Assembly (NCBI GenBank): GCA_034423035.1 | Contig: DAOUJF010000010.1 | Coordinates: forward strand, 20,594-84,593 | From: Dehalococcoidia bacterium | GTDB lineage: Bacteria > Chloroflexota > Dehalococcoidia > Lucifugimonadales > VXLM01 | Direction: 5' to 3' | DNA: 64,000 bases | Shown: piece by piece, positions 34,323 through 57,644 of the stretch | Layout: every line of letters begins with the position of its first letter | How positions within the stretch are numbered: the first letter of the stretch is position 1 | Position numbers and translations under genes: made by a program | The notes under the pieces: model-generated | Databases searched by the model: none | Told to the model about the DNA's origin: nothing | The model's input: only the letters and a program-made list of their open reading frames with translations

Positions 34323-35543
34323 ATGAAAGACTGGGACCTCCAAACCCTCTTCGACCGTGGAATGCTCGAAGACGCCATCGTCCGCGATGAGCTGTTCAAC
34401 GACATCGCCAACGGCAAGCGGCTCACCATCTACCAGGGGTTCGACCCGACCAGCCCAAACATGCACATCGGCCATCTGGTGGGCCTTCGTGTTCTCAGGT
34501 GGTTCCAGCTTCACGGCCATCACCTCATTCTCCTGATCGGCGACTTCACCGGACGCATAGGCGATCCCTCCGACCGCCCGGAGGCCCGCAAGCGCCTCAC
34601 CCACGCCGAAGTCCTCGAAAACGCCGAGACCTACAGCGAACAGTTCTCCAGGATATTCGATCTCGATGGCGAAAACCCCGCGGAGATCCGGTTCAACGGA
34701 CACTGGCTCGACAACATCACTCTATCCCAGTTCGTCGAGATCATGGACAAGTTCACCGTCCAGCAGCTTCTCGAACGCAGCATGTTCCAGGAGCGCCTGA
34801 AGAACCAGGAGGCGCTCTACCTGAACGAGATGATCTATCCCATCCTGCAGGGGTACGACTCCGTGGCGATGGAGGTGGATGCAGAGCTTGGCGGATCGGA
34901 CCAGCTATTCAATATGATGCGGGGCCGCGACCTCGTGGAGTCGTATCTGGGTAAGACCAAGCACGTGCTCACTACGCAGCTTCTGGAAGGCCTCGACGGT
35001 CGCAAGATGAGCAAGACCTACGGCAACACGGTCGACCAGACGGAAGACCCCGTGCCCATGTTCTTCAAGCTCACGCTCGTCCAGGACTCCAAGCTGCCGC
35101 GCTTCATGCAGGTCCTCACCGACCGCACGGACGACGAGATAGCCGCCATCGAGGAGCGCGCCAAGACCGAGCACAACATGATCGACGCCCGGCAGCAGTT
35201 CGCCCACGACATAGTGTCGATGCTCCATTCCGTCGAAGCGGCAGACGAGGCCCAGCGCGAGTTCGAGCGAGTCGTCAACGAGGGCGAGCTGCCCTCCGAC
35301 ATCCCCGACCTTCACGTTTCCCCCGACACCCACCGCGACGATGGCGTCGGAGTCGTCGACCTCCTGGCCCTCAGCGACTTGGTGCAGAGCAAGAGCGACG
35401 CCCGCCGCCTCGTTCAGCAGGGCGGCATCCGCATCAACGGCGAGATGATCGAAGACCCGCGCTCATCCATTTCCGCATCAAGACTGGCCGGAGCGCTCGT
35501 CAAAATCGGAAAACGAGGCTACGTCCGCGTCAGGGTAGGGTAG
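34323..35543 (+). CDS. tyrS: tyrosyl-tRNA synthetase
   Basis: GFDPTSPNMHIGHLV (HIGH), KMSKT (KMSKS), C-terminal S4 domain; 406 aa. Confidence 0.95.
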   Translation: MKDWDLQTLFDRGMLEDAIVRDELFNDIANGKRLTIYQGFDPTSPNMHIGHLVGLRVLRWFQLHGHHLILLIGDFTGRIGDPSDRPEARKRLTHAEVLENAETYSEQFSRIFDLDGENPAEIRFNGHWLDNITLSQFVEIMDKFTVQQLLERSMFQERLKNQEALYLNEMIYPILQGYDSVAMEVDAELGGSDQLFNMMRGRDLVESYLGKTKHVLTTQLLEGLDGRKMSKTYGNTVDQTEDPVPMFFKLTLVQDSKLPRFMQVLTDRTDDEIAAIEERAKTEHNMIDARQQFAHDIVSMLHSVEAADEAQREFERVVNEGELPSDIPDLHVSPDTHRDDGVGVVDLLALSDLVQSKSDARRLVQQGGIRINGEMIEDPRSSISASRLAGALVKIGKRGYVRVRVG

Positions 35544-35636
35544 GGCTGTGAAAATCCCCTCTCCCGTCGTGGGCTGACAGGGGTATGTATTTGACTATCA
35601 GCCACTCTCCATGAACCTGCAAGCAACCCCTTGACT

Positions 35637-35677
35637 GTCATTCTGAGCGCAGCGGAGCGGAGTCGAAGAATCTAAAA
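35637..35677 (+). repeat. REP-like hairpin, family A' (GTCATTC.GA..GAATC type), inside MITE
   Basis: gtcattctgagcgcagcggagcggagtcgaagaatctaaaa. Inverted partner at 35780-35811. Confidence 0.7.
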
Positions 35678-35779
35678 TGTTTGTCACAACGTAAAGCTGA
35701 CACGGCAAATTCTTACCCGGTTTGACTGTCGGTCATGATGAGAATCGTTGCACTGGCTGTCCGGTCTTGCGGTTATGGA

Positions 35780-35811
35780 TTTTAGATTCCTCGCTAGGCT
35801 CGGAATGACAG
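35780..35811 (-). repeat. REP-like hairpin, family A', inverted partner inside MITE
   Basis: ttttagattcctcgctaggctcggaatgacag. Confidence 0.7.
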
Positions 35812-35880
35812 GGTTGCGGTGGTCGGATCATAGCTGCAATCCCATTTTACATACCCCTGTCAGCCCGTCGTGGGAGAGGG

Positions 35881-36249
35881 CTAGGGTGAGGGCGGCTTCT
35901 CCGTAGCACGCTCTTTCTGGACAATGATTTCCAGTTGTTCGATCAAACGAGGCAGGTCGTCGTGAACTATGGTCCAGAGGCGATCAAAGTCAACTGAGTC
36001 ATAGCCGTGTATTAGTCGGTTGCGTAAGTCCGTGATGTCGCGCCATGGTCTCTGTGAGTATCGTGAACGAAAGTCTTCAGGGACTCGTCCAGCCGCCTCA
36101 CCAATGACCTCCAGCAATCTCACTAGGGCAAGATTCAGCATTCGATTGCTGTCGATGTCGGCTCGCGAACGGCCACGGAGCATGTCAACCGCTTCCCGCG
36201 CCCGCTCAAGCATGTGCTGGACTCGAACTAGAGGGTCATCCCTGGGCAT
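35881..36249 (-). CDS. hepT: HepT (DUF86) RNase-type toxin
   Basis: RNRLIHGYDSVDFDRLW (Rx4HxY motif). ATG 36249 (alternative GTG 36267) overlaps the mntA 3' end. Confidence 0.8.
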   Translation of the reverse strand: MPRDDPLVRVQHMLERAREAVDMLRGRSRADIDSNRMLNLALVRLLEVIGEAAGRVPEDFRSRYSQRPWRDITDLRNRLIHGYDSVDFDRLWTIVHDDLPRLIEQLEIIVQKERATEKPPSP

Positions 36250-36538
36250 AGACCACCAGGGATTCACTGAGTACGAGATGCCGGAAGGAAGGGTCTAGAT
36301 CGTTCGCCGTATTCAGGTCCACCTGCCTCCCTATGACCTCGCTAAGCTCTCGTTGCATAGAAAAAAAGGCTAGGCCCGGAGTATGCCCACGCTCGAACTC
36401 CACCAGCACGTCAACATCACTATCAGCCGAGAAGTCGTTTCTCAGCACCGAACCAAACAGTGACAGTTGTCGGATGTGATGCTGCTGGCAGAAGTTCGTA
36501 ATCTCTTCCTGAGGGATGTCGATATTCAGTGTCGTCAT
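36236..36538 (-). CDS. mntA: MntA nucleotidyltransferase antitoxin
   Basis: LSLFGSVLRNDFSADSDVDVLVEF (GS..DxD NTase motif). ORF trimmed to ATG 36538. Confidence 0.8.
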   Translation of the reverse strand: MTTLNIDIPQEEITNFCQQHHIRQLSLFGSVLRNDFSADSDVDVLVEFERGHTPGLAFFSMQRELSEVIGRQVDLNTANDLDPSFRHLVLSESLVVYAQG

Positions 36539-36555
36539 TGTTCTGCCTCCACTCC

Positions 36556-37872
36556 TCACCGAATCCGCAGCATCACCCGCCGTACCGCATCCACTAGAGC
36601 GTCGATCTCCCCCTCCGTCGTCAGCGAGCAAAGAGCCCCTGCCGCCTTCGTCTGCATCAGTATCCCCTCATTGAGCAGACCCGCGAAGAGCTTGCCCTGC
36701 ATCTCGCGATCGGCCCGCAGCACCGAGCGGTAGTCGACGATCCGCTCATCCGTGAAGTGGATGCCGAACAGCGAACCCACACCCGTCACCTGCACTGCTA
36801 TGTCGAGCTCGTCGAACACTGCTCTCAGCTTCGCGCGAAACATATCGCCAAGCGCGTTCATGCGCTCGTACACCTCCGGCGATAGCTGGTCCAGCGTCGC
36901 CAGTCCCGCCACCATCGTCATCGGGTTCGCGTTGAACGTCCCGGCGTGAGAGACCACTGGCGCGTCCGTCGGGTCGTAGAGGTCCATCAGGTCTGCTCGC
37001 CCGCCCCACGCTCCGACCGGCATTCCCCCGCCTATCACCTTCCCGAACGTCGTCATGTCGGGGATGACGCCCATCTGCTCCTGTGCCCCGCCCCGCGATA
37101 GCCGGAAGCTCTGCACCTCGTCGAAGATGAGTATCATCCCCAACTCATTGGTGATGTCTCTCAGAAACGCCAGGTAATCGCCGTCGGCAGCCAGATACCC
37201 GAAGTTCGACAGCACCGGCTCGATGATCACGCAGGACACCTCGTCCTCGTTCTCCCGCAGAATCCGCTCCGTCGACTCGATATCGTTATAGTGCAGCGTG
37301 ACAACGTCCTCGACCACGCTCGGAGGCTGCCCCGGCCACTCGGCAACGCTCGTCGGTTCCACGGGGTCGAGCGTGTCGAGAGGAGTATAGACGCTTACCG
37401 ACACGTACTCGTGGTTCCCGTGGTAGCCGCCCTCGATCTTGGCAATCTTGTGCTTGCCCGTGTACGCGCGGGCAGCGCGGATGGCGTTCAGTGTTCCCTC
37501 GGTGCCCGAGTTCGTGAACCGCACCTTTTCGACCGATGGCACCCGCTCGCACAACTCCTGCGCCAGCCGCACTTGCGATTCGTGCGGCGTGCTGTAGCTC
37601 AGACCGTCTACGGCCTGCTCACGCACCGCATCGACCACCCTGCCATTCGAGTGGCCGAGCACATAGGTCGTCGCGTTCAGCATGAAGTCGAGGTACCGGT
37701 TGCCGTCCACGTCCACGACGTGGTGCCCCTCCGTCCGCTCGACGAAGAACGGATACGGCCCAAAATACGCCGTCCCCCGCGAACTCCCGCCCGGCAGATA
37801 CCGCTCCGCCTCAGCCTGAAGCTCCGCCGACTTCGGCGTCGACGCTACGTAACGATCAACTTCCGAGTCCAT
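36556..37872 (-). CDS. class III aminotransferase, glutamate-1-semialdehyde aminomutase-like
   Basis: ATG 37872; SGTEGT, GGYHG, LIFDEVQSFR, TFGKVIGGG (PLP Lys) pattern of the GSA-AM family. Confidence 0.85.
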   Translation of the reverse strand: MDSEVDRYVASTPKSAELQAEAERYLPGGSSRGTAYFGPYPFFVERTEGHHVVDVDGNRYLDFMLNATTYVLGHSNGRVVDAVREQAVDGLSYSTPHESQVRLAQELCERVPSVEKVRFTNSGTEGTLNAIRAARAYTGKHKIAKIEGGYHGNHEYVSVSVYTPLDTLDPVEPTSVAEWPGQPPSVVEDVVTLHYNDIESTERILRENEDEVSCVIIEPVLSNFGYLAADGDYLAFLRDITNELGMILIFDEVQSFRLSRGGAQEQMGVIPDMTTFGKVIGGGMPVGAWGGRADLMDLYDPTDAPVVSHAGTFNANPMTMVAGLATLDQLSPEVYERMNALGDMFRAKLRAVFDELDIAVQVTGVGSLFGIHFTDERIVDYRSVLRADREMQGKLFAGLLNEGILMQTKAAGALCSLTTEGEIDALVDAVRRVMLRIR

Positions 37873-43038: not shown

Positions 43039-43183
43039 CTTCGGCGCCTCGCCGTCAGTCTCTCAGGAAACGGAGAGACCAACGCCATTTTCATTCCAAG
43101 TGATGAGAGTGGCGACCCTCATGAAATATCCCGAACGTAGCCCCTCCAGACCCATCATTCCGAACGCGCACTCCACCACATCT

Positions 43184-43222
43184 GTCATTCCGAACGTAGC
43201 AAAGCGAAGTGAGGAATCTTAA
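43184..43222 (+). repeat. REP-like hairpin, family A'
   Basis: gtcattccgaacgtagcaaagcgaagtgaggaatcttaa. Inverted partner at 43284-43314. Confidence 0.7.
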
Positions 43223-43283
43223 ATCCCTGCCGTCCAAGCGGAGTCTCGTAGCTGGAACGGCCTGGATGACGACGGCAGAACAT

Positions 43284-43314
43284 CTTAGATTCCTCGCGGT
43301 GCTCGGAATGACAG
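43284..43314 (-). repeat. REP-like hairpin, family A', inverted partner
   Basis: cttagattcctcgcggtgctcggaatgacag. Confidence 0.7.
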
Positions 43315-43365
43315 AGTGCTTTGCTGTAATGACAGAACGTGGTGCTGCAAAGACGAACGCCCCGC

Positions 43366-44705: not shown

Positions 44706-44753
44706 GGTGTCCCGTTAGACATAGAAACTGGTGTCCCGTTAGAAGTAGAAACC
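44706..44753 (+). repeat. tandem direct repeat, 2 x 24 nt, in the moeA upstream region
   Basis: ggtgtcccgttagacatagaaact / ggtgtcccgttagaagtagaaacc (21 of 24 identical by hand), 33-80 nt upstream of the moeA TTG start. Confidence 0.7.
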
Positions 44754-44812
44754 GTTCGTGGTGAGCTTGTCGAACCATGAACGGCGCGTTGACCCTTCGA
44801 CTGGCTCAGAGC
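44752..44812 (+). repeat. REP-like element, family B (both units)
   Basis: ccgttcgtggtgagcttgtcgaaccatgaacggcgcgttgacccttcgactggctcagagc. Confidence 0.75.
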
Positions 44813-44883
44813 TTGCCCCGCACTTGATACGGGGGCGAACGGACTTCTCTTGAACATCCTCTAAGTCCCTGCCAGTACGGTAC

Positions 44884-47313
44884 TCACTCGCCGCGCAGCG
44901 TCGCGCCCACCTCGCGTTCGAGCTGTCTCATGATGTCGCCGCGCGCCTTGTCCACAAGGTCGCCGGTGAGCGTCGAGCGGTCGGACTGGAATGTCACACG
45001 ATAGGCAACAGACCGTTTGCCCTGAGGAACTCCCTCGCCCGAATACAGGTCGAAAGGGGCGCTCTTCTTCACGAGACGGTGACGGTTAATGATGGTCTGG
45101 ATCCGTGATGACGGAACGTCGACGTCGACGAGAATGGCGATGTCCTGCTCAGCCTCAGGGTACCTGCTGATGGGGGAGTACTGCACAGAAACTCTACCGG
45201 CTGCGGCGTACACCGCACCCAAGTCGATCTCGAACAGCGCCACACTCTCTTCGTCGAGATCGAAGCGCGCGAGGACCCTGGGATGCACCTCGCCAATAGT
45301 GCCTACCGGCTTGTTCCCGCAGAAGACACTCGCAGTCTTGCCTGGAAGCAGGATGGAATCGGTGTCCGCCTCATAGTTCTCCGACACTCCGATCTGAGAG
45401 AAGACCGTCTCCAGGACACCCTTGGCGTCGAAGAAGTCCATGTCGCCCTCAGGCACGAGCCACGAAGCCTCCGAACGCGGACCGGAGAGAACGCCCACGA
45501 GCATTTCCTTCTCGTCCGGCAGGTCGCGCTCCTTTGCCTCCTCCTTGGGCAGATAGACCGCGCCGATCTCGAAGAGGCGCAGTCCCTCTCCGCGTGACAT
45601 CCTTCGGTTGAAGGAGAGCGTCTGCAGCACCCCTGAGCGCAGCGTCGTCCGCATGTGAGAGAGATCGCTGCTCATTGGATTCGACAGTTTCAGCGGAGCT
45701 TCCGGTTCCTCCGTTGGCGTCTCGACCTTCTCAAGCGCCTCAAGGCTGGTGGCCGAATAGGAGATCGTCTCCTGCATTCCCGCCGACACCAATGCGTCCC
45801 GGACACGCTCTCTCACCACTCGCTCGGCATTTGGCTGGTGGTGTGGTATCTCAGTCGACATCAATGTCGCGGGCACGTCGTCATAGCCAACGATTCGCGC
45901 GACCTCTTCGACGAGGTCCTCCGCAATGGTGATGTCCGCCCGCCAGTAGGGGCATTGGACTTCCAGCGAGTCCCCGTCTCGCGTCGTCTCGAATCCCAGC
46001 GATGTCAGCACCCGGTCTATCGTATCGATGGAAATGCCGGTGCCCAGGACTCGCCTGAACTGTTCAGGTCCAATGGTCAGCGTTGGCGGCGTCTTGACCA
46101 CGGGAAATACGTCGATGATCCCCTTTGCCGCGACACCCCCCGCCAGTTCGAGCGTCAAAGCCGTAGCACGCCGCAGCGCGCGTGGGACGAGGTCCTGCCG
46201 GATGCCGCGCTCGAACCGGTAGGACGCCTCCGTCCTCATGCCCAGACCGGTGGCAGTGTTTCGCGTGTTGTTCGCATCGAAGTTCGCCGACTCTATAAGG
46301 ACGTTGGTCGTCGAATCGCCGACCTCGGTGTTCAGACCGCCCATCACGCCCGCCAGTGCTATGGCGTCCTGCGAGTCTGCGATAGTCAGCATCGGAGGTT
46401 CGAGGGTGCGCTGCTCTTCGTCCAGCGTGGTGAACTTCTCACCGGACCGTGCGGCCCTTATGATGACCGTCGAGTCGCCTATGGTGTCGCAGTCAAAGGC
46501 GTGCAGCGGCTGACCGTACTCCATCATGACGAAGTTCGTCACGTCGACGATGTTGTTGATCGGACGCATCCCCACACTGTTGAGGGCATCCTGCAGCCAC
46601 TGCGGCGAAGGGCCAACCGTGACCCCACGGATCAGACTCGCGCCGTATCGAGAGCAAAGATCAGGGTCGGCGATTTCAATCGTTATGTCCCGCTCGATGG
46701 GATCGCCGTCCTCCGGGTACGTCGCGTCGGGTTCGGTGACCGTACCGCCCGTGAGGGCGGCCACCTCGTGCGCAACTCCCAGAATCGAGAGACAGTCGGG
46801 CCGGTTCGGGGTCACGTCGGCGTCCAGAACGGCGTCGCCGAGGTAGTCCACCAACGGCATTCCGACGGGTGCGTCGTCCGGGAGCACCAATATGCCATCG
46901 TGGTCGTCGCCGAGGCCCAACTCGACCTCCGAGCACACCATTCCGGCCGACTCGACGCCCCGTATCTTCGACTTCTTCAGGGCCTGCGTCTTACCCGTCC
47001 TGGTGCTGTGCAGCATGGCTCCGGCGTGGGCGAACGCGATCTTCTGACCGGCGGCAAGGTTCGGCCCGCCGCAGACCACCTGGATAGTCTCGCCGCCGCC
47101 GAGATCAAGGGTCGGCACCGTCAGCCGGTCGGCGTTCGGGTGACGGTCGAGGGCTGTGACGTGGCCCACGACCACCTTGTCGCGTCCCCAGTCGGCCCCG
47201 ACCTCGCGCACCTCGTCGATCTCCAGCCCGGCCATGGTCAGCTTATGCGCCAACTCCTGCGCCGGCATGTCGACCGGCACGTAGCGCTTCAGCCAGGATA
47301 TGGGTATCAGCAT
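44884..47313 (-). CDS. pheT: phenylalanyl-tRNA synthetase beta subunit
   Basis: 809 aa, full PheT architecture (tRNA-binding N-terminus, B3/4, B5, FDX-ACB). Confidence 0.95.
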   Translation of the reverse strand: MLIPISWLKRYVPVDMPAQELAHKLTMAGLEIDEVREVGADWGRDKVVVGHVTALDRHPNADRLTVPTLDLGGGETIQVVCGGPNLAAGQKIAFAHAGAMLHSTRTGKTQALKKSKIRGVESAGMVCSEVELGLGDDHDGILVLPDDAPVGMPLVDYLGDAVLDADVTPNRPDCLSILGVAHEVAALTGGTVTEPDATYPEDGDPIERDITIEIADPDLCSRYGASLIRGVTVGPSPQWLQDALNSVGMRPINNIVDVTNFVMMEYGQPLHAFDCDTIGDSTVIIRAARSGEKFTTLDEEQRTLEPPMLTIADSQDAIALAGVMGGLNTEVGDSTTNVLIESANFDANNTRNTATGLGMRTEASYRFERGIRQDLVPRALRRATALTLELAGGVAAKGIIDVFPVVKTPPTLTIGPEQFRRVLGTGISIDTIDRVLTSLGFETTRDGDSLEVQCPYWRADITIAEDLVEEVARIVGYDDVPATLMSTEIPHHQPNAERVVRERVRDALVSAGMQETISYSATSLEALEKVETPTEEPEAPLKLSNPMSSDLSHMRTTLRSGVLQTLSFNRRMSRGEGLRLFEIGAVYLPKEEAKERDLPDEKEMLVGVLSGPRSEASWLVPEGDMDFFDAKGVLETVFSQIGVSENYEADTDSILLPGKTASVFCGNKPVGTIGEVHPRVLARFDLDEESVALFEIDLGAVYAAAGRVSVQYSPISRYPEAEQDIAILVDVDVPSSRIQTIINRHRLVKKSAPFDLYSGEGVPQGKRSVAYRVTFQSDRSTLTGDLVDKARGDIMRQLEREVGATLRGE

Positions 47314-47334
47314 CTAGGACCTCGGAATATCCCT

Positions 47335-47361
47335 GTCATTCCCGCGTAGGCGGGAATCCAG
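47335..47361 (+). repeat. REP-like hairpin, family A
   Basis: gtcattcccgcgtaggcgggaatccag, within the pheS-pheT spacer. Confidence 0.75.
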
Positions 47362-47401
47362 AGCGGGTGGCGTGTCGGATTGTGAGTAAGGTGAGTAAGA
47401 G

Positions 47402-47429
47402 TGGATTCCCGCGTTCGCGGGAATGACGG
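47402..47429 (-). repeat. REP-like hairpin, family A, inverted copy
   Basis: tggattcccgcgttcgcgggaatgacgg, within the pheS-pheT spacer. Confidence 0.75.
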
Positions 47430-47501
47430 AAGTTGTGCAAGGATCTCAATTCGTAGGAATGACGACGTGAGCCAAAACAACATCGAGGACATCAACATGA
47501 C

Positions 47502-48554
47502 CTACACCTGCTGCAGGAACCGGATGTCGTTCGAGTAGAACAGGCGGATGTCGTCGATGCCGTATTTGAGCATCGCGATGCGCTCGACGCCCATGCCGAA
47601 CGCGAAGCCGGTGTAGACGGAAGGGTCGTACCCGACGCCCTCCAGCACGCTGGGATGAACCATCCCGGCTCCGAGTATCTCGATCCAGTCCTCATCACGG
47701 TTGATGGGACGCTTGCCGGTCTTCGGGTCCTTGAAGTTTGAGATCGACATGTCCACACCCGGCTCGACGAAGGGGAAGAAGTCGCACCGGAACCGTATCT
47801 GACGGTCCTCGCCGAACGTCCTTCGTGCGAATTCGTACAGCGTCCCCTTGAGGTCGGCGAACGTGATCCCCTTGTCCACCGCGAGGCCCTCGACCTGGTG
47901 GAAATGCCACTCGTGGGTCGCGTCCGTCGCCTCGTACCGGTAGCACTTGCCCGGCACGACGACGCGCACGGGCGGGCTGGTCTTCTCCATGATCCGCGCC
48001 TGCATCGGCGAGGTATGCGTACGCAGGAGCATCGGCCTGTTGCCGCGCTCGTCCACGCGGTCGATCCACAGGGTGTCCCACATGTCCCGCGCCGGGTGGT
48101 CATTCGGGATGTTCAGCAGATCGAAGTTGTAGCGGTCGAGCTCGATCTCCGGCCCCTCCTCGACCTGGAACCCCATCGAGGAAAAGACGCTCGTGATCTC
48201 CCTTAGCATCCGAGTCGTTGGGTGGAGACGTCCCTGCGGAACGGGCCATCCCGGCAGCGTAACGTCAATACTCTCCCGCTCGACGACATTTGCCAGGTGT
48301 GCTGTCTTCAGCTCCTGCTCGCGCTCTGCTAGATGCCCTTCGAGGACGGTCTTGGCCTCATTCGCCGCCGCGCCCAGCCGAGGACGCTCCTCCTTGGGGA
48401 CGGAGCCGAGACTGCGGAGTATCTGCGTCAGCGCACCGTTCCTGCCCAGCGTGGACACGCGCCACTCTTCGAGGCCGTCCAGATCGGAAACGGCCTTCAG
48501 CCGTTCAAGGGCCTCGTCGGTAGTCCGTTCGACCACGTCGGTCTGTGGCTGCAT
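47502..48554 (-). CDS. pheS: phenylalanyl-tRNA synthetase alpha subunit
   Basis: 350 aa; class II motifs HPARDMWDT, FRCDFFPFVEPG, GAGMVHP. Confidence 0.95.
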   Translation of the reverse strand: MQPQTDVVERTTDEALERLKAVSDLDGLEEWRVSTLGRNGALTQILRSLGSVPKEERPRLGAAANEAKTVLEGHLAEREQELKTAHLANVVERESIDVTLPGWPVPQGRLHPTTRMLREITSVFSSMGFQVEEGPEIELDRYNFDLLNIPNDHPARDMWDTLWIDRVDERGNRPMLLRTHTSPMQARIMEKTSPPVRVVVPGKCYRYEATDATHEWHFHQVEGLAVDKGITFADLKGTLYEFARRTFGEDRQIRFRCDFFPFVEPGVDMSISNFKDPKTGKRPINRDEDWIEILGAGMVHPSVLEGVGYDPSVYTGFAFGMGVERIAMLKYGIDDIRLFYSNDIRFLQQV

Positions 48555-48595
48555 GGCAGGGGAGTGCGTCCGTAGGGGAGTGTGCGGTTCAGAGC

Positions 48596-48625
48596 ATTAT
48601 AGGTATTGCCCCGAACGACGGTCAA
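48596..48625 (-). promoter_or_regulatory. promoter TTGACC-N18-TATAAT upstream of pheS
   Basis: Minus strand reads ttgacc gtcgttcggggcaatacc tataat, about 42 nt upstream of the pheS ATG. Confidence 0.45.
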
Positions 48626-48650
48626 CAAAACAGGGGTGCTCCATAACCGA

Positions 48651-48680
48651 CCGTCATACCGGCGAAGGCCGGTATGACGG
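48651..48680. repeat. REP-like hairpin, family A variant, perfect palindrome
   Basis: ccgtcataccggcgaaggccggtatgacgg. Confidence 0.75.
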
Positions 48681-48698
48681 GGTGGTCGCAACTCAACT

Positions 48699-48722
48699 CA
48701 TCATGTGAGCTTGCTCACATGA
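48699..48722 (-). terminator. strong hairpin downstream of membrane-protein gene (possible terminator or operator)
   Basis: tcatgtgagc tt gctcacatga, about 9-bp stem. On the minus strand it is followed by tgagttgagttg, only moderately U-rich. Confidence 0.3.
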
Positions 48723-48787
48723 CTTAGCCACTGCAATCCTCTCGTCCCCTGACCTTGGGACGGCGGCCGGCAAGTCCTAGACTCCGT

Positions 48788-49468
48788 CTATTGCCACAGG
48801 TCGGGATCGGGTCGGTTCATCAGTCCGAGGCCCAGATAGCCCCACCAGATAACCAGCAGCACGTAGAAGCTCCGGGCCAAGGAGATAAAGGTGTCGCGGC
48901 CGTCGTTGTTGAATATCGCTATCATGAAGAAGACCATCACGGCCAGACTGACAAGGGCAGCCAGGAGGGAGACTATACGGTTGAAGTCGTCTCTCGTGGA
49001 TAGGCCCAACGCGAAGATGAAGCCGCCAAGCCCCAGCGTAATCCCACCTGCGTAGACGAGAGCGGAACCGGCGTAGTAGACGGGAACGCTTCCCGCGATC
49101 TGTTCACTGGTCTGGGCATCGGCCAGAATGAAGTCCGTCGCGCTGGATAGAATCCAACCGGTCAGTCCAACCAACATCATGAAGAAGCCCATCTGGACCA
49201 GCGCCTTGCCGTTGCCCTGCAGGGTTACGTTTCGCATCAGCGCGTAGAGGCCTGAGAGGATCAGGGCGAGGCCAAGGATTATCCCTATGTTGGTTACATT
49301 GGCCAGCGTGGCGTTGCCACTCTTGGCCATTACGGAGCCAACAGCGTCTGACACCTTGGCGCTGTCTATCAGCAGTCCCCCCGGCTCTATGAGAAAGAAG
49401 ACGAAGGCGATTATCGGACCGAATATGAGAGACAGCCCCGCCAGTCGGTTCACAGCTATTGTGCCCAT
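48788..49468 (-). CDS. hypothetical polytopic membrane protein
   Basis: ORF trimmed to ATG 49468 (MGTIAVNRLAGLSLIFGPII). About 6 hydrophobic segments. No family recognised. Confidence 0.5.
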   Translation of the reverse strand: MGTIAVNRLAGLSLIFGPIIAFVFFLIEPGGLLIDSAKVSDAVGSVMAKSGNATLANVTNIGIILGLALILSGLYALMRNVTLQGNGKALVQMGFFMMLVGLTGWILSSATDFILADAQTSEQIAGSVPVYYAGSALVYAGGITLGLGGFIFALGLSTRDDFNRIVSLLAALVSLAVMVFFMIAIFNNDGRDTFISLARSFYVLLVIWWGYLGLGLMNRPDPDLWQ

Positions 49469-49895
49469 GATTGAACCTCCCTTATGTGATGTCATGTGAA
49501 GGATCCGTTGCGTTCAATCCTTCCTAGCGTGCATTTTGACGACAAAATAGTGGAAATGCAATAGGAAAGCGACGTGCCCCGATAGTCGTACCACGCGCTA
49601 GATTAGTCTCGTGGGGCGTCTGCGCTTACATCGGTCTGTGAAGTATCCAGAAGGTTTAAGCCGGGGAACATGGAACTAGGTGAGAGGCGCGAGATACCTT
49701 ATGACGCCATGTAGAAGACTCCAGTCTGGAATAGACTACCATTCTGGACAAAATCAAGAACCTTCACATCGAGGTTCGTTCTCGACCTATAATGGGGGCA
49801 TTCACTTCGCCCACCAGGCGGACAGTTCGTCAGGAGCGCAATAGGCGTCCCCAGGGGTCACCGGTCAACATTCTTGCCCGGGGAGCGTAGTTGAA

Positions 49896-50921
49896 ATGGC
49901 TTCCAAAAACGAAACCACTCTTAAGAACTCGATAAGTTCACAGTACGGTCTCGAGGTAGATTCCCTTGCAAGAATAAATCAGGGCCTTGGAACGACCAAC
50001 TGGATACTGAGGACTCGTGAAAGTGAATATTTCGTCAAGCAGTTTGACGTTTCTGCGGATCCTGATAGAGAGCGTGATGCTCTCAGGCTGGCCAATCACG
50101 CACGTTCCCGCGGTATCCCATCACCCAGAATAGTAGTGACCAAGACAGGTGACCTCCTAAGCGTGGACTCACAGGCTATGTTGTCTGTCTTCGATTATGT
50201 TCCCGCAACGACATCAGGAGGGAGCCTCACACACAGACTAATGATAGAAGCAGGAGCTACTCTCGGTACCCTTCACCGACTATTTCGATGGCTCCCCGCT
50301 GCATATTCTCCGATTACGAATGAGTGGTTAAGTTTCAATACTAGTGCCAAGAGACTCGAAGTCGACAGACTGATTCGAATCATCGATGCGAAGCTTGTGC
50401 CTGACGAATTCGACAATCTTGCAAAGGATACGCTTTGGAGGAAGAAGGAATTGCTCATGCAAGTCCCAATGATGGCTGATCCACTCAGGGCGTTGAGTAC
50501 GCAGGTGATTCACAACGACTTTAGTAGCCCTAACATCCTGTTCAGAGGGGAGGAGTTGGTAGCAGTAGTTGACTTTCAGCCGTCGGAGCCTTTCCTGGTT
50601 TCGTACGAAATCGGGAGAATGGCTCTCAATGTTGAAAACCTACAATCGTCGGGGTGGTTCGAGAAATCTGTTGCCTTTGTAGACGCCTACTGCAGAGAGA
50701 ATCCAGTGGACGCAGACGACGTCGTCAAGGCACCTCAAGCCTGGCTCGTACAGCTCGTTAGGAGTACTTACGGGATTAAAGACCACTATATGAGGCCTCA
50801 CGAGTTTCAGGAAGAATTGGATCGATTTTCGTTGGATCGAAGCCACGCCTGCGAGATTATATTGAAGAATCTGGCTGAACTGGAGAGCGGCTATAGGGCT
50901 ACTTGGGAGCACGCTCACTGA
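49896..50921 (+). CDS. aminoglycoside/choline/homoserine-kinase-type phosphotransferase (APH family)
   Basis: VIHNDFSSPNILF (HxDxxxxN) and VAVVDFQPS (DFG-like). Visibly lower GC than the window average. Confidence 0.75.
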   Translation: MASKNETTLKNSISSQYGLEVDSLARINQGLGTTNWILRTRESEYFVKQFDVSADPDRERDALRLANHARSRGIPSPRIVVTKTGDLLSVDSQAMLSVFDYVPATTSGGSLTHRLMIEAGATLGTLHRLFRWLPAAYSPITNEWLSFNTSAKRLEVDRLIRIIDAKLVPDEFDNLAKDTLWRKKELLMQVPMMADPLRALSTQVIHNDFSSPNILFRGEELVAVVDFQPSEPFLVSYEIGRMALNVENLQSSGWFEKSVAFVDAYCRENPVDADDVVKAPQAWLVQLVRSTYGIKDHYMRPHEFQEELDRFSLDRSHACEIILKNLAELESGYRATWEHAH

Positions 50922-51102
50922 GTGGAAATGCTGTAACCGCTCAGGCTGATGTCGTCCCCCAACTAGACCCGAACCTGCCACTTTCCACTAGAGTTCCTAG
51001 CCAATCCTCATAGAGAAAGTTCCCTATCCCACCCCCACCATTTGACAAACCGTCCCGATTTCCTCACATTGTGCGGAGACAATCGTCGAGGTGACCAACG
51101 AC

Positions 51103-52176
51103 ATGGCTCAGCAATATCTCGCATATATCGGCACGTACACATCCTTGGGGGCGGAGGGCATCTACTGCTACCGCTTCGATATGGCGACCGGAGGCCTTGA
51201 GTACGTCGGCACGACCGGAGCGATCGACGACCCGTCGTTCCTGGATATTGCTCCGTCCGGCAAGAATCTGTACGCGGTCTGCGCCGACTTCGAGGCTATG
51301 ACGACGGGTATCATACGCGCCTACTCGATAGACGCGGGCACCGGCGAGTTGACCTTCCTGAACGAGCAGTCGTCGGAGGGTGCGGGACCCTGCCACGTCG
51401 AGGTCGACCGGACGAGCAGGGTAGTCCTGCTGGCGAACTACGGGAGCGGCAGCGTGGCGTCCTACCCCGTCGAGGCGGACGGAAGCCTCGGAAAGGCTGC
51501 GGGATTTGTCCAGCACGAGGGATCGAGCATCGACCCCGAACGCCAGGAGGGGCCGCACGGGCACTCGATCAACATCGACCCGACCAACACCTTCGCCTTC
51601 GCCGCCGACCTCGGCATCGACAAGGTGCTGGCGTACAGGATCAACCACGACGACGGGAGCATTAGCCCCGCCGATTCGCCGTACACGCGCACTCCTCCGG
51701 GCGGAGGCCCGCGCCATTTCGCCTTCCATCCCAACGGCAGGCACGCCTACCTCCTCAACGAGATGGGGTCGAGCATCACGTCGATGCACTACGACGACTC
51801 GCGCGGGATGCTCAACGAGATCGAGACACTCACGACCCTCCCGGACGACTTCGACGGAGTCAACCACTGCGCCGACATCCACGTGTCCCCGGACGGCAAG
51901 TTCGTCTACGCCTCCAACAGGGGCCACGACAGCATAGCGGTTTTCAGTATCGATCAGGGCACCGGCGGGCTCTCCTTCGTTGGCCGCGTGTCGAGCGGCG
52001 GCGAGACCCCTCGCAACTTCGCCCTCGACCCGTCGGGCACCTACATGCTGGTGTCCAACCAGGACACGGGCAACATCCTCACCTACCGCATCAATGGCGA
52101 AACCGGGATGCCTGAGCCGACGGGCCACGAGGTCGAAGTCCCCGCTCCCGTCTGCATCAAGCTGTTGCCGGTGTAG
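51103..52176 (+). CDS. 7-bladed beta-propeller lactonase (6-phosphogluconolactonase-like)
   Basis: YLAYIGTYTS..GIYCYRFD, repeated ..P.HF.FHPNG..AY..NE.. blades. ATG 51103 (alternative GTG 51091). Confidence 0.85.
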   Translation: MAQQYLAYIGTYTSLGAEGIYCYRFDMATGGLEYVGTTGAIDDPSFLDIAPSGKNLYAVCADFEAMTTGIIRAYSIDAGTGELTFLNEQSSEGAGPCHVEVDRTSRVVLLANYGSGSVASYPVEADGSLGKAAGFVQHEGSSIDPERQEGPHGHSINIDPTNTFAFAADLGIDKVLAYRINHDDGSISPADSPYTRTPPGGGPRHFAFHPNGRHAYLLNEMGSSITSMHYDDSRGMLNEIETLTTLPDDFDGVNHCADIHVSPDGKFVYASNRGHDSIAVFSIDQGTGGLSFVGRVSSGGETPRNFALDPSGTYMLVSNQDTGNILTYRINGETGMPEPTGHEVEVPAPVCIKLLPV

Positions 52177-52209
52177 GAACCACCACAGAGGATAGACCTC
52201 AAGACAACC

Positions 52210-52236
52210 GTCATACCGGCGAAGGCCGGTATCCAG
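52210..52236 (+). repeat. REP-like hairpin, family A variant
   Basis: gtcataccggcgaaggccggtatccag. Confidence 0.75.
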
Positions 52237-52330
52237 AGGGATGGGGGACAAGGTGTGCATCGGGAATCAAGTCTCCCCGTGCCCGTCGATGGGATAGAAT
52301 AGCCCACGAACACATCCTGGGAGGGCCGTC

Positions 52331-52702
52331 ATGGACGAACGACGTATCGCAACGATGAGCAGGATAACCTTGGTCGTACAGAACATGATGATGGTGACCG
52401 AGTTCTACCGCGACGTGCTGCAGCTCAAGCCGATCTTCGACCTGCATGTGCAGCCCCCGCAGTGGATCGAGTTCAACACCGGAGCGTGCAGGCTCGCCCT
52501 CCAGGTCGCCTCAAGGGTCGACGGCGTGCCCTCCACCTACAGCAAGATCGTCTTCTATGTCGACGACGTCGAGGAGGCCCGCAAGGAGCTGCTGGAGCGC
52601 GGCGCTCCCATGGGAGAGGTCGAAGAAGACGGACGATTCCAATACTGCGAGGGCCAGGACCCTGAGGGCAACAAGTTCCAGGTGTCGAACCGGCCGGCGT
52701 AG
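52331..52702 (+). CDS. VOC (glyoxalase/bleomycin-resistance fold) family protein
   Basis: 123 aa; ITLVVQNMMMVTEFYRDVLQLK...DPEGNKFQV is a typical single VOC module. Confidence 0.75.
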   Translation: MDERRIATMSRITLVVQNMMMVTEFYRDVLQLKPIFDLHVQPPQWIEFNTGACRLALQVASRVDGVPSTYSKIVFYVDDVEEARKELLERGAPMGEVEEDGRFQYCEGQDPEGNKFQVSNRPA

Positions 52703-52815
52703 AAAGAAGAAAGTAGTGAGTATTGCGTAGACCACACATGCAACCCGCGATGGTGCGGAATACCAACCACTAATTTCTACGCAATGCTCTCTTCTTTCTC
52801 TGAACGGAGCCAACC

Positions 52816-53721
52816 ATGCCGCCACTCAAAGTAACGAAGGCCGACCTCGCCGAAGACCTTTCCGGACTTGGCATACCGCACGGCGGACTTCTGTTTGTCC
52901 ACAGCTCGCTGAGCGCCATCGGTGAGGTCGAGGGCGGAGCCGACACGGTCGTCGACGCATTGCTTGAAACTCTCGGACCTGACGGCACGTTGGTCGTTCC
53001 GACCTTCACCTACGCCGACCCGCACGACTACCCCGACTCCATCAACCCCAACTGGATATTCGATCCGGCGAACACCCATTCAGGCATGGGCGCGATAACC
53101 AACGCCGTCCGTATGCGAAAGAATGCCCTGAGGAGCGTCCATCTGTGGCACAGCGTGGCCGCCATCGGCCCGCTCGCGGAGAAGGTCGTCACAGGCAATG
53201 GCAGGACGTGGGCGTCCGCATGGGACGCTAACAGTCCAATGGCCTGGACGTTCGACAACGGCGCGTCCATCCTCATGCTCGGAGTGCCGTACCAGAATCT
53301 CACGGCGATCCACGTCTGGGAAGTCGAGTTCGGTGTCGACTACCGCGAGACGAAATTCGTCACCCGCCGTACGCCCCTGTCCGACGGGACTCTGGCGCCC
53401 CTAGCGAGCCAGGTACACGCCCGCAAGGACTGGCACCCCGGCAGCGACTTCAACCGCTTCGGCGAGCGCATGGAGAAGGTGGGACTCGTCGGTGTCGGGC
53501 ACGTGGGCAACGCCGTAGCGCGCCTCTTCACCGCCGCCGACGCGCATGAGATGGCCCGCACGATGTACCAGGAGGATAACGCCGCGTTCCTCAAGCAGGG
53601 CGAGAGCGTCACGAAACTCTCCTACGCCCACACCATTTCAAACGTGAAGGGTACCCAGTGCGTCGTCGATCCCGCCAAGGCCTTCCCAACGCCCCCGGCA
53701 ACCGAAGAGCACGCGGCATAG
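52816..53721 (+). CDS. AAC(3)-family aminoglycoside N3-acetyltransferase-like protein
   Basis: LFVHSSLSAIGEVEGGADTVVDALLETLGPDGTLVVPTFT, the hallmark N-terminus of the AAC(3) (Antibiotic_NAT) family. Confidence 0.8.
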   Translation: MPPLKVTKADLAEDLSGLGIPHGGLLFVHSSLSAIGEVEGGADTVVDALLETLGPDGTLVVPTFTYADPHDYPDSINPNWIFDPANTHSGMGAITNAVRMRKNALRSVHLWHSVAAIGPLAEKVVTGNGRTWASAWDANSPMAWTFDNGASILMLGVPYQNLTAIHVWEVEFGVDYRETKFVTRRTPLSDGTLAPLASQVHARKDWHPGSDFNRFGERMEKVGLVGVGHVGNAVARLFTAADAHEMARTMYQEDNAAFLKQGESVTKLSYAHTISNVKGTQCVVDPAKAFPTPPATEEHAA

Positions 53722-53781
53722 ACTCATTCGCCTTGACTGCGCCGTAGTCCCTTGGGTTTACTCGCGCCAAAAGACCTCATC

Positions 53782-53808
53782 GTCATTCCCGCGAAAGCGG
53801 GAATCCAT
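53782..53808 (+). repeat. REP-like hairpin, family A
   Basis: gtcattcccgcgaaagcgggaatccat. Confidence 0.75.
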
Positions 53809-53866
53809 CGAGACTAGCCAGCAACAACGTGGCAAAACAACAGCGAATAACCCTGAGGAGTATCTC

Positions 53867-54958
53867 ATGACCCCCCTCCGAGCAGCCCTTGTCGGAGTCG
53901 GACGAATCGCCGACATGCACCACCTGGGATACTCCGCATCGCCCATGGCGGAGGTGGTCGCCATCTGCGACACGGACTCAGGCCTGCTCAAGCGACGCGC
54001 GTCGGAGTGGGGCGTAGAGAAGACCTGCCTCGACTTCGACGATCTGCTCAACGATCCCGAGGTGGACGCCGTGGACATCATCACGCCGCACTATCTTCAT
54101 GCACCCATGACGATCGCCGCGCTGGAATCGGGAAAGCACGTCACGGTGCAGAAGCCGATGGCCCTCTCGATTGCCGAGGCCGACGCTATGATCGAGGCGT
54201 CGGAGCGCACGGGCAAGCTCCTCCGCGTTATTGACAACTACCGCTTTCACCCGCCGTTCGTCCGCGCCAAGCAGATACTCGATTCAGGAGGCATCGGCGA
54301 GCCGATGTCCATACGCATCAAGACCGCGAGCGGCACGGCGCCCGACGGCTGGGAAATACCCCGGTCGTCTCACGTGTGGCGCTCCGACCCGACGCTGTCG
54401 GGAGACGGTTCCGTCCTGTTCGACCACGGCCACCACGTCTGGACGATAGCCCGGTACCTGCTGGGCGATATCGAGCGCGTGTTCGCCTACATCGGCAGCA
54501 CAGAGGTGGTCAAGCACCACGAGATCGTGCCGGGCGGCATCCTCGACAATCCCGGCATGATCGTGTGGAAATACGCCGACCGCGACTTGTACGGCACGTG
54601 CGAGTCCGTCCACTCCGAGGAGCTAATCATTCGCTCCACGCATTACCCCATTGACGCGTCGTTCGAGATCACGGGCACACGCGGAATCCTGTACATCCAG
54701 CAGGGGCCGAACGGACAGTTGGTGAATCGGCCTCCAATTGAGATACTCCGCGACGGCTCCATGACGAGCATCTCCAATATCGAGACCGGCTACGACGCCG
54801 GTTTCCGGCTGGCAATCGAGGACTTCGTTCAGGCCATATCGGACGGTCGCCGGTCCGACCTCACCGGAGAGGAGGCGCGGGAGGTCCTGCGCTTCTCGCT
54901 CGCGATGGTGCGCTCAGGCCGCGAGGGCAGGGAAGTCGTCGTCGCCGACGAACGTTAG
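53867..54958 (+). CDS. Gfo/Idh/MocA family oxidoreductase
   Basis: LRAALVGVGRIA Rossmann N-terminus, EKPMA-like VQKPMALS motif; 363 aa. Confidence 0.85.
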   Translation: MTPLRAALVGVGRIADMHHLGYSASPMAEVVAICDTDSGLLKRRASEWGVEKTCLDFDDLLNDPEVDAVDIITPHYLHAPMTIAALESGKHVTVQKPMALSIAEADAMIEASERTGKLLRVIDNYRFHPPFVRAKQILDSGGIGEPMSIRIKTASGTAPDGWEIPRSSHVWRSDPTLSGDGSVLFDHGHHVWTIARYLLGDIERVFAYIGSTEVVKHHEIVPGGILDNPGMIVWKYADRDLYGTCESVHSEELIIRSTHYPIDASFEITGTRGILYIQQGPNGQLVNRPPIEILRDGSMTSISNIETGYDAGFRLAIEDFVQAISDGRRSDLTGEEAREVLRFSLAMVRSGREGREVVVADER

Positions 54959-54986
54959 TTCCGATGAATTCCAGATGCCGGGCGGC

Positions 54987-55250
54987 CTAGAACCACGAAG
55001 TCCGGTTGACCACGTACATCTCCTGGAACTCCTCATCCGTCTTGGTCAGGTACAAAATCCCCTCGATCAGGCCAATCACCGAGGTGACTATCGAAGCGAT
55101 TCCACACGTTAGAATCGTTGCCAGTAGGAGAACCAAACCGGGACCTGTGTATCCCAAGTAGAACTTGTGAATCCCCAGCCATCCCAGCAGGATTCCGAAC
55201 ACCCCTGCGGCTACCTTGCTCTTCGTTGGCCGTGTTCCTTCTGAAGTCAA
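54987..55250 (-). CDS. TM2 domain membrane protein
   Basis: GVFGILLGWLGIHKFYLG TM2 signature. TTG start with AAGGAGG 6 nt upstream. Confidence 0.8.
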   Translation of the reverse strand: MTSEGTRPTKSKVAAGVFGILLGWLGIHKFYLGYTGPGLVLLLATILTCGIASIVTSVIGLIEGILYLTKTDEEFQEMYVVNRTSWF

Positions 55251-55592
55251 CGTTCGCCTCCTTCAGTCGTGATCGATGTTCCGCCCATACTACCGCGAAT
55301 CTCGATTTGACGCATCTGCCTTCAGTATGAAATTCTTAGGAGTAGTTCGGAATATACGTTCTGTGACCCACAGGGTCAGACGGGAAGGTTCGTCCAGTCA
55401 TGCGCTCCGGAATGAGGCCGACACAACTTTACAATAACGCGCAAAATGCGACAGTTTGCAACACCATGCAACACATTTCGAGAGTTTTCGCTGTCAACAG
55501 GACGCTGTCTTGTCGCGTTGACCGCATCTGCGTTCTCATGCCCCACCTGATACAATGAACGCCGTCATCCCCATTCGTTGAGCGACGGTTAG

Positions 55593-56135
55593 GTGAGCGG
55601 ACTCCTCAAAGGCCTCGCGGTCACACTGAAGACTATGAAGCGGTCTCCGGTGACCGGCCAGTACCCCGATCCCAACAAGCGTTTGCCCGTGCAGGAGCGC
55701 TTCATGGGGTTCCCCGCTCTCCTGTGGGACTACACCGCCGACGAGCCGTACTGCACCGGCTGCATGGTCTGCGTGCGCGAGTGTCCTACCCAGTGCATGA
55801 GCGCCACCATGAAGGACAATCCCCAGCACCCTGAGGGGAAGTCCAAGCGCCGCAAGATCATCGACGAGTTCGAGATCAACCTCAACCGCTGCATCCTGTG
55901 CGGCATCTGCGTCGACGTGTGCAACTTCGACGCCATCGAGATGAGCCACGAGCACGAGCAGAGCCGCTACGTCCGCGACGGCTCACGCGTCGACCTCCCG
56001 GAGCTTCTCGAGATGGGCAAGGTCTACCAGCGCGACACCGGATGGCAGCCCACTCAGGCTAAGAACATAGGCCGTCCCGACGAGACGGCTTCACCCAAGA
56101 AGAATGTCAAGAAGAAAGTGACAGAGGCCGGCTGA
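55593..56135 (+). CDS. nuoI: NuoI/Nqo9-like 2x[4Fe-4S] ferredoxin (orphan, no other nuo genes nearby)
   Basis: N-terminus LKGLAVTLKTMKRSPVTGQYP like Nqo9. CTGCMVCVRECP and CILCGICVDVCN cluster motifs. GTG start. Confidence 0.75.
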   Translation: MSGLLKGLAVTLKTMKRSPVTGQYPDPNKRLPVQERFMGFPALLWDYTADEPYCTGCMVCVRECPTQCMSATMKDNPQHPEGKSKRRKIIDEFEINLNRCILCGICVDVCNFDAIEMSHEHEQSRYVRDGSRVDLPELLEMGKVYQRDTGWQPTQAKNIGRPDETASPKKNVKKKVTEAG

Positions 56136-57540: not shown

Positions 57541-57567
57541 CGTCGCCTAGGGATGATGGTGGTGCCC

Positions 57568-57630: not shown

Positions 57631-57644
57631 AAGGTCGCGGCACT

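Follow-up and report, generated by a model that had tools for sequence, protein, structure and literature searches.

Introduction

Repetitive extragenic palindromic (REP) sequences serve as targets for insertion sequences (ISs), and documented cases belong to the IS3, IS110, IS4 (ISRm22), IS256 and IS5 families (PMC1525189). IS1397 and ISKpn1 of the IS3 family and ISPpu9, ISPpu10 and IS621 of the IS110 family insert specifically into REPs or palindromic units, with experimental evidence for IS1397, ISKpn1 and IS621 (PMC1525189). All copies (10/10) of ISRm22 from Sinorhizobium meliloti, an IS4-family element of the IS4Sa group, are located in REPs (PMC1525189), and its target arms are conserved (PMC2266710). 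Conserved target arms have also been noted for IS4-family elements, and IS4Sa elements have CA ends and generate duplications of 8–10 bp (PMC2266710). IS231A, an IS4-family element of the Bacillus cereus group, duplicates 11 bp and targets the palindromic motif GGGNNNNNCCC (PMC2577343, Table 1). Here we describe an element in a stretch of 64,000 nt from a Dehalococcoidia bacterium (contig DAOUJF010000010.1), which we call the window. Positions 35574–35863, between the genes tyrS and hepT, are very probably a 290-bp MITE (miniature inverted-repeat transposable element), a non-autonomous derivative of a Dehalococcoidia IS4-family IS that inserted into the tip of a REP-like hairpin by an 11-bp duplication. 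The term REP-like is used in a descriptive sense only.

IS231A and its MIC231 derivatives share with the system described here a DDE transposase with a YREK signature, an 11-bp duplication and a palindromic target in which five free bases lie between three G/C and three C/G. MIC231 elements are natural non-autonomous derivatives of IS231A that have only the ends in common with it. The polarity of the IS231A target is opposite to the CCC-N5-GGG found here, and the motif found here is longer by about 6 bp in each arm. The ends are CAT in IS231A and CT in our element, whose host belongs to the Chloroflexota. The IS231A transposase is not detectably close to that of the autonomous partner described below, and the best NCBIfam match of the latter, transpos_IS4_2, stayed below the cut-off.

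ISRm22 also is an IS4-family element in REPs with conserved target arms, but differs by the 8–10 bp duplications and CA ends of IS4Sa (11 bp and CT ends here), by its REP family and by the phylum of its host. A non-exhaustive literature search returned no MITE derivative of ISRm22. IS3 elements use a DDE enzyme produced by frameshifting and move through circle intermediates, and IS110 elements encode an RNA-guided DEDD enzyme. With IS1397, ISKpn1, ISPpu9, ISPpu10 and IS621, our element shares the REP as landing pad alone; the transposase classes differ, and the duplication is of another length or absent. A further similarity exists to REP doublets forming hairpins (REPINs), since small repeats form an inverted pair inside the MITE, resembling a REP doublet, and the target is a REP-like palindrome. 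REPINs, which rely on a Y1 (HUH) transposase, have neither IS-type terminal inverted repeats (TIRs) nor a target duplication. The element of the window has ends of the IS4 type with a length of 16 bp, its duplication comprises 11 bp and its partner is a DDE element; the TIRs and the duplication rule out that it is a REPIN.

Anatomy and Boundaries of the Element

The original prediction, made from the sequence of the window, described a perfect 19-bp inverted repeat, direct copies of GTCGT and complementary hairpin arms, and all of these were present. The 19-mer GGGCTGACAGGGGTATGTA occurs without mismatch at 35571–35589 (plus strand) and 35848–35866 (minus strand); it had no further match in the window even when up to 3 mismatches were tolerated, and 0 matches were expected in shuffled sequences. 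GTCGT borders both ends, and the direct repeat extends to 11 nt (CCCGTCGTGGG, 35563–35573 and 35864–35874). The outer arms cccctctccc and gggagaggg are complementary, so that the arms of the inverted repeat comprise 33 nt with mismatches confined to the 5 central bases.

The true target-site duplication (TSD) has 11 bp (CCCGTCGTGGG), the TIR 16 bp and the element 290 bp, because, within the family, the triplets bordering the core CTGACAGGGGTATGTA covary with the far flank. The boundaries given initially (TIRs of 19 bp, a TSD of 5 bp and 296 bp in total) had to be replaced, while the 11-bp TSD mentioned there as an alternative was upheld by this covariation. The features of the element and its target are as follows (window positions):

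35556–35562, no strand: outer 5' arm of the REP-like hairpin (CCCCTCT), outside the duplication; complementary to 35875–35880 and agreeing with the intact repeat consensus atCCCCTCTCCCGTCGTGGGAGAGGGCTAGGGTGAGGG in its left part
35563–35573, no strand: left TSD copy, 11 bp, CCCGTCGTGGG, composed of the last 3 nt of the arm, the 5-nt loop and the first 3 nt of the other arm; perfect direct repeat with 35864–35874
35574–35863, plus strand: probable MITE proper, 290 bp, non-coding; 18 near-full-length homologues, no transposase similarity, no Rfam match
35574–35589, plus strand: left TIR, 16 nt, CTGACAGGGGTATGTA; identical to the termini of ISs of 1.32–1.33 kb in L072, L012 and L030 (L numbers denote sequences retrieved from related genomes); the only other copy in the window is the right TIR
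35635–35678, plus strand: left copy of the internal repeat unit (family A'); inverted repeat with 35779–35814 and among the best-conserved blocks of the MITE family
35779–35814, minus strand: right copy of the internal repeat unit (family A'); 86% identical to 43282–43317
35848–35863, minus strand: right TIR (TACATACCCCTGTCAG on the plus strand); perfect reverse complement of 35574–35589
35864–35874, no strand: right TSD copy, 11 bp, CCCGTCGTGGG; perfect direct repeat of the left copy
35875–35892, no strand: rest of the REP-like repeat, with the outer 3' arm AGAGGG and the tail CTAGGGTGAGGG; fits the intact repeat consensus, and the tail ends hepT (minus strand)

The TIRs matched at 16/16 nt and the TSD copies at 11/11 nt. 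The predicted lack of an open reading frame (ORF) was confirmed in that no ORFs overlap the MITE except mechanical ones of 40 and 52 aa. Its G+C content is 51%, compared to 60% for the window. The internal inverted pair of family A' repeats was found as described before, and related units outside the MITE are located at 43182–43226 and 43282–43317. They fall within a second A'-type inverted pair at 43180–43320 (ctgtcattccgaacg...gaggaatcttaaat / atcttagattcctcg...cggaatgacag), which lies outside any MITE and whose unrelated spacer comprises about 55 nt. An A' doublet like this one may have given rise to the interior of the MITE.

A Family of Elements with 11-bp Duplications

Further copies of the TIR in related genomes, which the original prediction had proposed to look for, were numerous. 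A scan of species-representative genomes detected the 19-mer in at least 119 stretches, all from metagenome-assembled genomes (MAGs) of Dehalococcoidia/Chloroflexota, many of them with sponge-style bin names. The short elements with the terminal repeat comprise about 100–700 bp. The whole 290 bp aligned with 18 near-full-length homologues of 77–92% identity, which are located at unrelated loci with differing flanks in other Dehalococcoidia genomes. No MITE copy other than the one described here is present in the 64-kb window. The terminal-repeat family is apparently a large IS4-type family of Dehalococcoidia without a name.

For the boundary analysis, the 16-nt core CTGACAGGGGTATGTA served as the anchor for 86 paired elements. 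In 20 of them, the triplet beside the core was other than GGG/CCC and equal to the distal flank, resulting in perfect 11-bp duplications, for example CCC TAGAA GAG at both flanks in L016 and CTC CCACG GGG at both flanks in L030. The longest perfect flank repeat was exactly 11 bp in 37 of the 86 pairs and stopped at 5 bp in none. A perfect 11-bp flank repeat was present in 38/86 pairs and a repeat of at least 10/11 in 46/86, compared to 14 of 194,918 control positions; the 38 perfect duplications represent 31 distinct sequences. Distant relatives in Nostoc and Methylomagnum likewise have 11-bp duplications.

Some copies showed peculiarities. L115 (3859–4148), which is the best match to the window element (92%), and L056 (1767–2059) have the left terminus GGAGAG instead of CTGACA, as if this end had been exchanged for, or had recombined with, a repeat arm (GGGAGAGGGG). 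In L107 (4421–5917) and L024 (2140–3907), MITE-family copies are split by IS110-family elements of about 1.2–1.5 kb (DEDD_Tnp_IS110 and Transposase_20 domains). The IS110 insert of L107 lies in the internal A'-type repeat (...GGAATGACAGGG), which results in layers of REP, then IS4-type MITE, then IS110. Elements adjoin in tandem in L031 (3608–5378). Long homopolymers of G or C border several ISs from long-read assemblies (L050, L055, L088, L108); these may be genuine targets or may have arisen in the assembly. In one copy, L066 (3394–3694, alignment columns 75–100), the GAGCGGAGCG motif in the left A' unit is enlarged like a short tandem repeat.

The Autonomous IS4-Family Partner

An autonomous partner with the same TIRs, also suggested for a search in the original prediction, was found in ISs encoding a DDE transposase, which are flanked by 11-bp duplications as well. 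The 25 paired elements of about 1.3–1.8 kb, mostly 1.32–1.33 kb, have the same TIRs of 16–17 bp and a single ORF of 400–418 aa, which fills the element and shows no frameshift. The encoded proteins matched Pfam DDE_Tnp_1 with 44.1 and 31.5 bits (cut-off 23). We aligned four proteins of 37–61% identity, namely two Dehalococcoidia transposases and their closest annotated relatives, from Nostoc and Methylomagnum plasmids. D109, D172 and E275 (spacings of 63 and 103) were invariant in all four, as was Y268-(2)-R271-(3)-E275-(6)-K282. Judged by its sequence, the putative partner thus matches exactly the hallmarks of the IS4 family, which are a single ORF whose product bears D(60–110)D(100–150)E as well as Y(2)R(3)E(6)K (De Palmenaer et al., PMC2266710).

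The 11-bp duplication is within the range of the IS4 family (7–13 bp) and agrees with a YREK-bearing enzyme of this family. The CT ends are like those of IS10, IS50 and ISPepr1, and the duplication of 11 bp is like that of IS231 and IS4. None of the subgroups in the 2008 Table 1 of PMC2266710 (IS231, ISH8, IS4Sa, IS4, IS10, IS50, ISPepr1) combines CT ends with an 11-bp duplication.

IS and MITE have only the terminal 16–23 nt of each end in common, which rules out that the MITE arose from the IS by internal deletion. Recent activity of the IS is indicated by three copies on one chromosome (L030, L042, L087) that are 100% identical but have different duplications. Transposase-coding copies were present in 29 of the retrieved loci, and in MAG S5_317 the IS (L012) occurs together with MITEs of the 290-bp family (L011, L056). 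In public metagenomes the transposase family had 2,405 database matches, with clusters of up to 576 members.

The closest annotated relatives are IS4-like elements of Nostoc sp. C057 and CENA543 and of Methylomagnum ishizawai plasmids, labelled only as "transposase" and showing 37–39% amino acid identity over 97–98% of the protein. They resemble the Dehalococcoidia elements in size (1.31–1.36 kb), in their ends CTTTCAAGGGTAGGGG and CTTACAAGTGTAGG, which align with CTGACAGGGGTATGTA, and in the 11-bp duplications. They differ in that none of the three duplications seen (AGGGGGAGCAG, AGGGGCCACCG, CCATCTAATCC) is a CCC-N5-GGG palindrome. The strict preference for hairpin tips may therefore be specific to the Dehalococcoidia lineage, as judged from these three outside sites.

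The Target Is a REP-Like Hairpin

Reconstruction and symmetrization of the 38 sites with perfect duplications resulted in the consensus CCCTCT^CCC-N5-GGG^AGAGGG. The family strongly prefers this palindromic motif and inserts into palindromes of this type in almost all cases. In the symmetrized profile, C had frequencies of.97,.75 and.92 at the edge of the TSD, followed outside by T/C, C, T and C. The 5' arm outside the duplication consists almost exclusively of pyrimidines. At least 8 of 10 palindromic pairs around the dyad were present in 29 of the 38 reconstructed sites and in 0.3% of the controls. At sites with 5-nt loops the duplication comprises 3 nt of the arm, the 5-nt loop and 3 nt of the other arm. 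At sites with 3-nt loops its position is shifted by one base and it keeps one edge at T^CCC, which suggests that a half-site is read at a fixed distance and cut with a fixed 11-bp stagger.

Removal of the element and one repeat copy from the window sequence restores CCCCTCTCCCGTCGTGGGAGAGGGCTAGGGTGAGGG, which is found intact 26 times (15 times exactly) in 967 kb of related DNA, including close relatives. The hairpin is hence a pre-existing, dispersed REP-like repeat. This bears out the earlier view that the element sits in a hairpin loop and that the empty site can be reconstructed, the empty form being a dispersed repeat with 26 intact copies. The repeat has a stem of 9–10 bp and a 5-nt loop, and 73 palindromes with pyrimidine/purine arms and a 5-nt loop were counted. 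Several insertions show the same duplication because the repeat family has a consensus loop. The window holds one member of this family, the interrupted copy.

The IS end GACAGGGG and the target arm GAGAGGGG match at 7/8 positions in one register. A resemblance of the TIR to the target arm was too weak to be used and fails for CCTTCCCCC-type targets.

Other abundant hairpin repeats of these genomes and of the window are never hit by the element. At least three other small hairpin-repeat families are present in the window, none with a MITE:

Family around GTCATTCCnGCGnAGGCnGGAATCC: 8–9 copies, window 5652–53809
Family around GTTCGCCCTGAGCCTGTCGAAGGGC: 4 copies, window 20560–63390
Family around GTTCGTGGTGAGCTTGTCGAACCATGAACGG: 3 copies, window 44749–57705

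Further repeats of the window are three copies of a 286-nt unit at 60828–62125, with a spacing of about 500 nt and 70–74% identity, and separate repeats of 65–68 nt at 56669–57458, apparently within a repeat-containing coding region.

Flanking Genes and the Orthologous Locus

The position between convergent tyrS and hepT genes, as predicted, was supported by ORFs and Pfam domains:

34323–35543, plus strand: tyrS, tyrosine--tRNA ligase, ORF of 406 aa; Pfam tRNA-synt_1b (E=1e-62) plus SYY C-terminal and S4 domains
35881–36267, minus strand: hepT, HepT-like ribonuclease toxin, ORF of 128 aa; Pfam PF01934 (E=5.9e-25)
36236–36631, minus strand: nucleotidyltransferase, MNT-type antitoxin partner of HepT; Pfam Polbeta and NTP_transf_2

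The REP-like repeat is located between the convergent genes, yet hepT overlaps its tail (ccctcaccctag), from which the final four codons (PPSP) and the stop codon TAG of this gene come (35881–35895, minus strand). The window HepT can be aligned to the HepT of L122 up to residue 115 only, and the 13 C-terminal residues are different. An exact look-up of the window HepT sequence found no record. The MITE insertion has no demonstrated effect on either of the two convergent genes.

Ten loci whose TyrS has 91–97% identity were retrieved:

L121 (97%), L124, L127 and L130: aminotransferase gene directly after tyrS; no hepT, REP or MITE
L123 and L128: nucleotidyltransferase (MNT) gene only
L122: a different DDE_Tnp_1 IS between tyrS and hepT (442 aa, ends ...GCTCCAACTAATT...)
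L129: contig stops about 320 bp beyond a truncated tyrS; no REP or MITE seen
L125 and L126 (94%, same TyrS): same repeat arm and CCCGTCGTGGG, followed by the element in opposite orientation

The region 3' of tyrS (window 35544–35880 compared to L121–L130) is a hot spot for mobile DNA, and the HepT/MNT pair is missing from the closest relative (97% TyrS identity). The 50 nt of the element that are visible in L125/L126 are closer to other paralogues than to the window copy. This favors an independent hit on the same repeat, a TIR-to-TIR inversion being also possible. A Logan contig with identical TyrS stops 7 nt into the 19-nt repeat (4 nt into the 16-nt TIR), and two contigs of a 94%-identical relative stop about 50 nt into the element. 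Repeats break assemblies at such points.

Alternative Explanations

One alternative is that the transposase recognizes an extruded hairpin or cruciform, or a single-stranded hairpin at the replication fork, instead of the palindrome in duplex DNA. The 29 of 38 targets that can form a stem of at least 8/10 pairs are compatible with it, as are the use of loops of both 3 and 5 nt and the fact that the insert plus arms folds far better than shuffled sequences (z = -6.4). We nevertheless regard this explanation as rather unlikely. Recognition of structure would not account for the other abundant hairpin families that remain unhit in the same genomes and in the window, nor for the almost purely pyrimidine 5' arms with position-specific bases. 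The cut at 3-nt loops, offset by one base with its edge kept at T^CCC, also argues for a reading of sequence. Moreover, palindromic target motifs that reach beyond the duplication are the general rule for DDE cut-and-paste enzymes (PMC2577343).

The boundaries proposed originally imply an element of 296 bp with TIRs of 19 bp starting with GGG and a 5-bp duplication GTCGT, generated by a transposase with a 5-bp stagger (IS701, ISH3, IS1634 or Tn3-derived). This fits the window copy equally well, because the target is CCC-N5-GGG, and an initial tabulation of the 19-mer with mismatches seemed to show perfect 5-bp repeats in 43 of 82 cases. The tabulation was artefactual, since the tolerated mismatches clustered in the target-derived terminal triplet. 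The 5-bp explanation is already contradicted by the 20 pairs in which a triplet other than GGG/CCC equals the distal flank, and the maximal repeat lengths (11 bp in 37 pairs, 5 bp in none) as well as the relatives of 37–39% identity with CT-starting ends and 11-bp duplications leave it highly improbable. The partner transposase has the full YREK signature, which is tied to duplications of about one helical turn and is incomplete in the families with 4–6 bp duplications, IS701, ISH3 and IS1634 (PMC2266710). An origin from one of these three families was rejected for the 11-bp duplication and the complete YREK, and the match to the IS701 hidden Markov model (HMM) was weak (33 bits, cut-off 170). 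Tn3-derived miniature elements have inverted repeats of about 38 bp starting with GGGG, a 5-bp duplication and a Tn3-type transposase as partner. A Tn3-derived origin was rejected as well, because the TIR has 16–17 nt and starts with CT, the duplication has 11 bp and the partner is DDE_Tnp_1/IS4-like.

It is just as improbable that the element, located between tyrS and hepT, is a conserved structured RNA or a regulatory module. Over 19 copies from several species, two internal blocks show almost no variation, and the strand folds stably, but the copies are located at unrelated loci and close relatives lack the element at the tyrS locus. An Rfam search of the element gave no match at gathering or permissive (E<=1) thresholds. 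A promoter and terminator scan found no such signal within the element, and the consensus structure showed essentially no covariation (term -0.71; double change in 3 of 63 pairs). Nothing in these three negative results indicates a host function.

The least probable explanation is that the hairpin arms belong to the element as an imperfect 33-bp TIR, or that a REP–MITE composite spreads as a unit without insertion into an existing hairpin: the inverted repeat does reach 33 nt, several copies have the TSD (CCCGTCGTGGG or its complement) in common and resemble each other beyond the arms, and a relative has a MITE in the same repeat at the same locus, but the arms vary between copies (CCCTCTCCC, CCTTCCCCC, TCTCTCCCCC and others) around a constant 16-bp core, the intervening 11 bp form a direct, not an inverted, repeat of 31 different sequences, the 36-nt repeat is often found uninterrupted (26 copies in 967 kb, 15 exact), the 1.33-kb IS occupies the same kinds of hairpin, and the shared TSD is explained by the consensus loop of the repeat family.

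Discussion

The reading of the element as a MITE, already put forward in the original prediction, was borne out by the multi-copy family, the autonomous partner and the dispersed empty hairpin. Our data suggest the following mechanism. The MITE has kept just the 16-bp termini CTGACAGGGGTATGTA that are needed for recognition by the DDE transposase of the IS, and its interior, unrelated to the IS, consists mainly of an inverted pair of another small repeat. For the MITE to move, the transposase of about 400 aa would have to be provided in trans. From its family membership and by analogy with IS10/IS50 and IS231A, this enzyme is expected to bind the ends of 16–17 nt and to excise the element by cut-and-paste of the IS10/IS50 type. 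Joining of the 3' ends to target phosphates 11 bp apart would generate the duplication CCCGTCGTGGG. The complex of transposase and ends, with its presumed two-fold symmetry, would read the palindrome as duplex DNA, following the model of staggered cuts at palindromic targets as for the GGG-N5-CCC of IS231A. The palindromic motif coincides exactly with the tip of a REP-like stem-loop, and the element has therefore split a repeat of this kind between the 3' ends of tyrS and hepT. By analogy with other DDE enzymes, we favor recognition of the target by its sequence rather than by its structure.

Several observations weigh against this interpretation. No flank repeat at all was found in 30 of the 86 pairs; these may be decayed, mis-paired or rearranged copies. 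With respect to the asymmetric tail of the repeat (the ccctcaccctag side), about 8/9 of the insertions of the 290-bp family are oriented one way, and the window copy is the exception (count from the flanks of L092, L101, L052, L066, L068, L085, L011 and L125 compared to the window). This bias weighs against a purely symmetric target model, which predicts about 50:50, although the counted copies may not be independent. The best NCBIfam match of the partner transposase, transpos_IS4_2, had 101 bits and thus stayed under the cut-off of 152, and a sequence search of the PDB with the transposase gave no meaningful match. The 64-kb window contains no transposase similarity (tblastn with the partner transposase), no other TIR copy and no other target-like site. 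The empty site in relatives, which the original prediction had proposed to look for, did not turn up: none of the ten related loci has an orthologous empty allele (REP without MITE), and only paralogous intact repeats were found. Exact-pattern scans of JGI metagenomes matched neither the filled nor the empty junction and are uninformative on the empty allele. Finally, sequence data cannot separate recognition of the sequence from recognition of the hairpin structure.

A further-reaching idea is that the elements form an undescribed IS4 subgroup whose transposase recognizes the tip of one particular REP stem-loop, perhaps in its extruded form, and for which REPs are dedicated harmless landing pads. 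We consider this doubtful. If true, a plain DDE enzyme would integrate almost site-specifically, and the nesting would be layered (REP, IS4-type MITE, IS110).

ISs that target REPs have been known before, and what is new here is an example from the Chloroflexota with MITE derivatives that combines CT ends with an 11-bp duplication. It is also a neat illustration that at a palindromic target a single copy misleads on the boundaries of an element. For annotation, the correct boundaries (16-bp ends and 11-bp duplication) are supplied, and a recurrent repeat of sponge-associated and marine Dehalococcoidia genomes that breaks short-read assemblies is resolved. With a target spanning about 23 bp, so simple a DDE transposase might hold some interest as a site-preferring integration tool. 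The system is a clear IS4-family case in a little-studied phylum, with a palindromic target that is unusually long and strict and coincides with a REP-like repeat. It supports the view that REPs are safe landing pads for several classes of transposases (PMC1525189).

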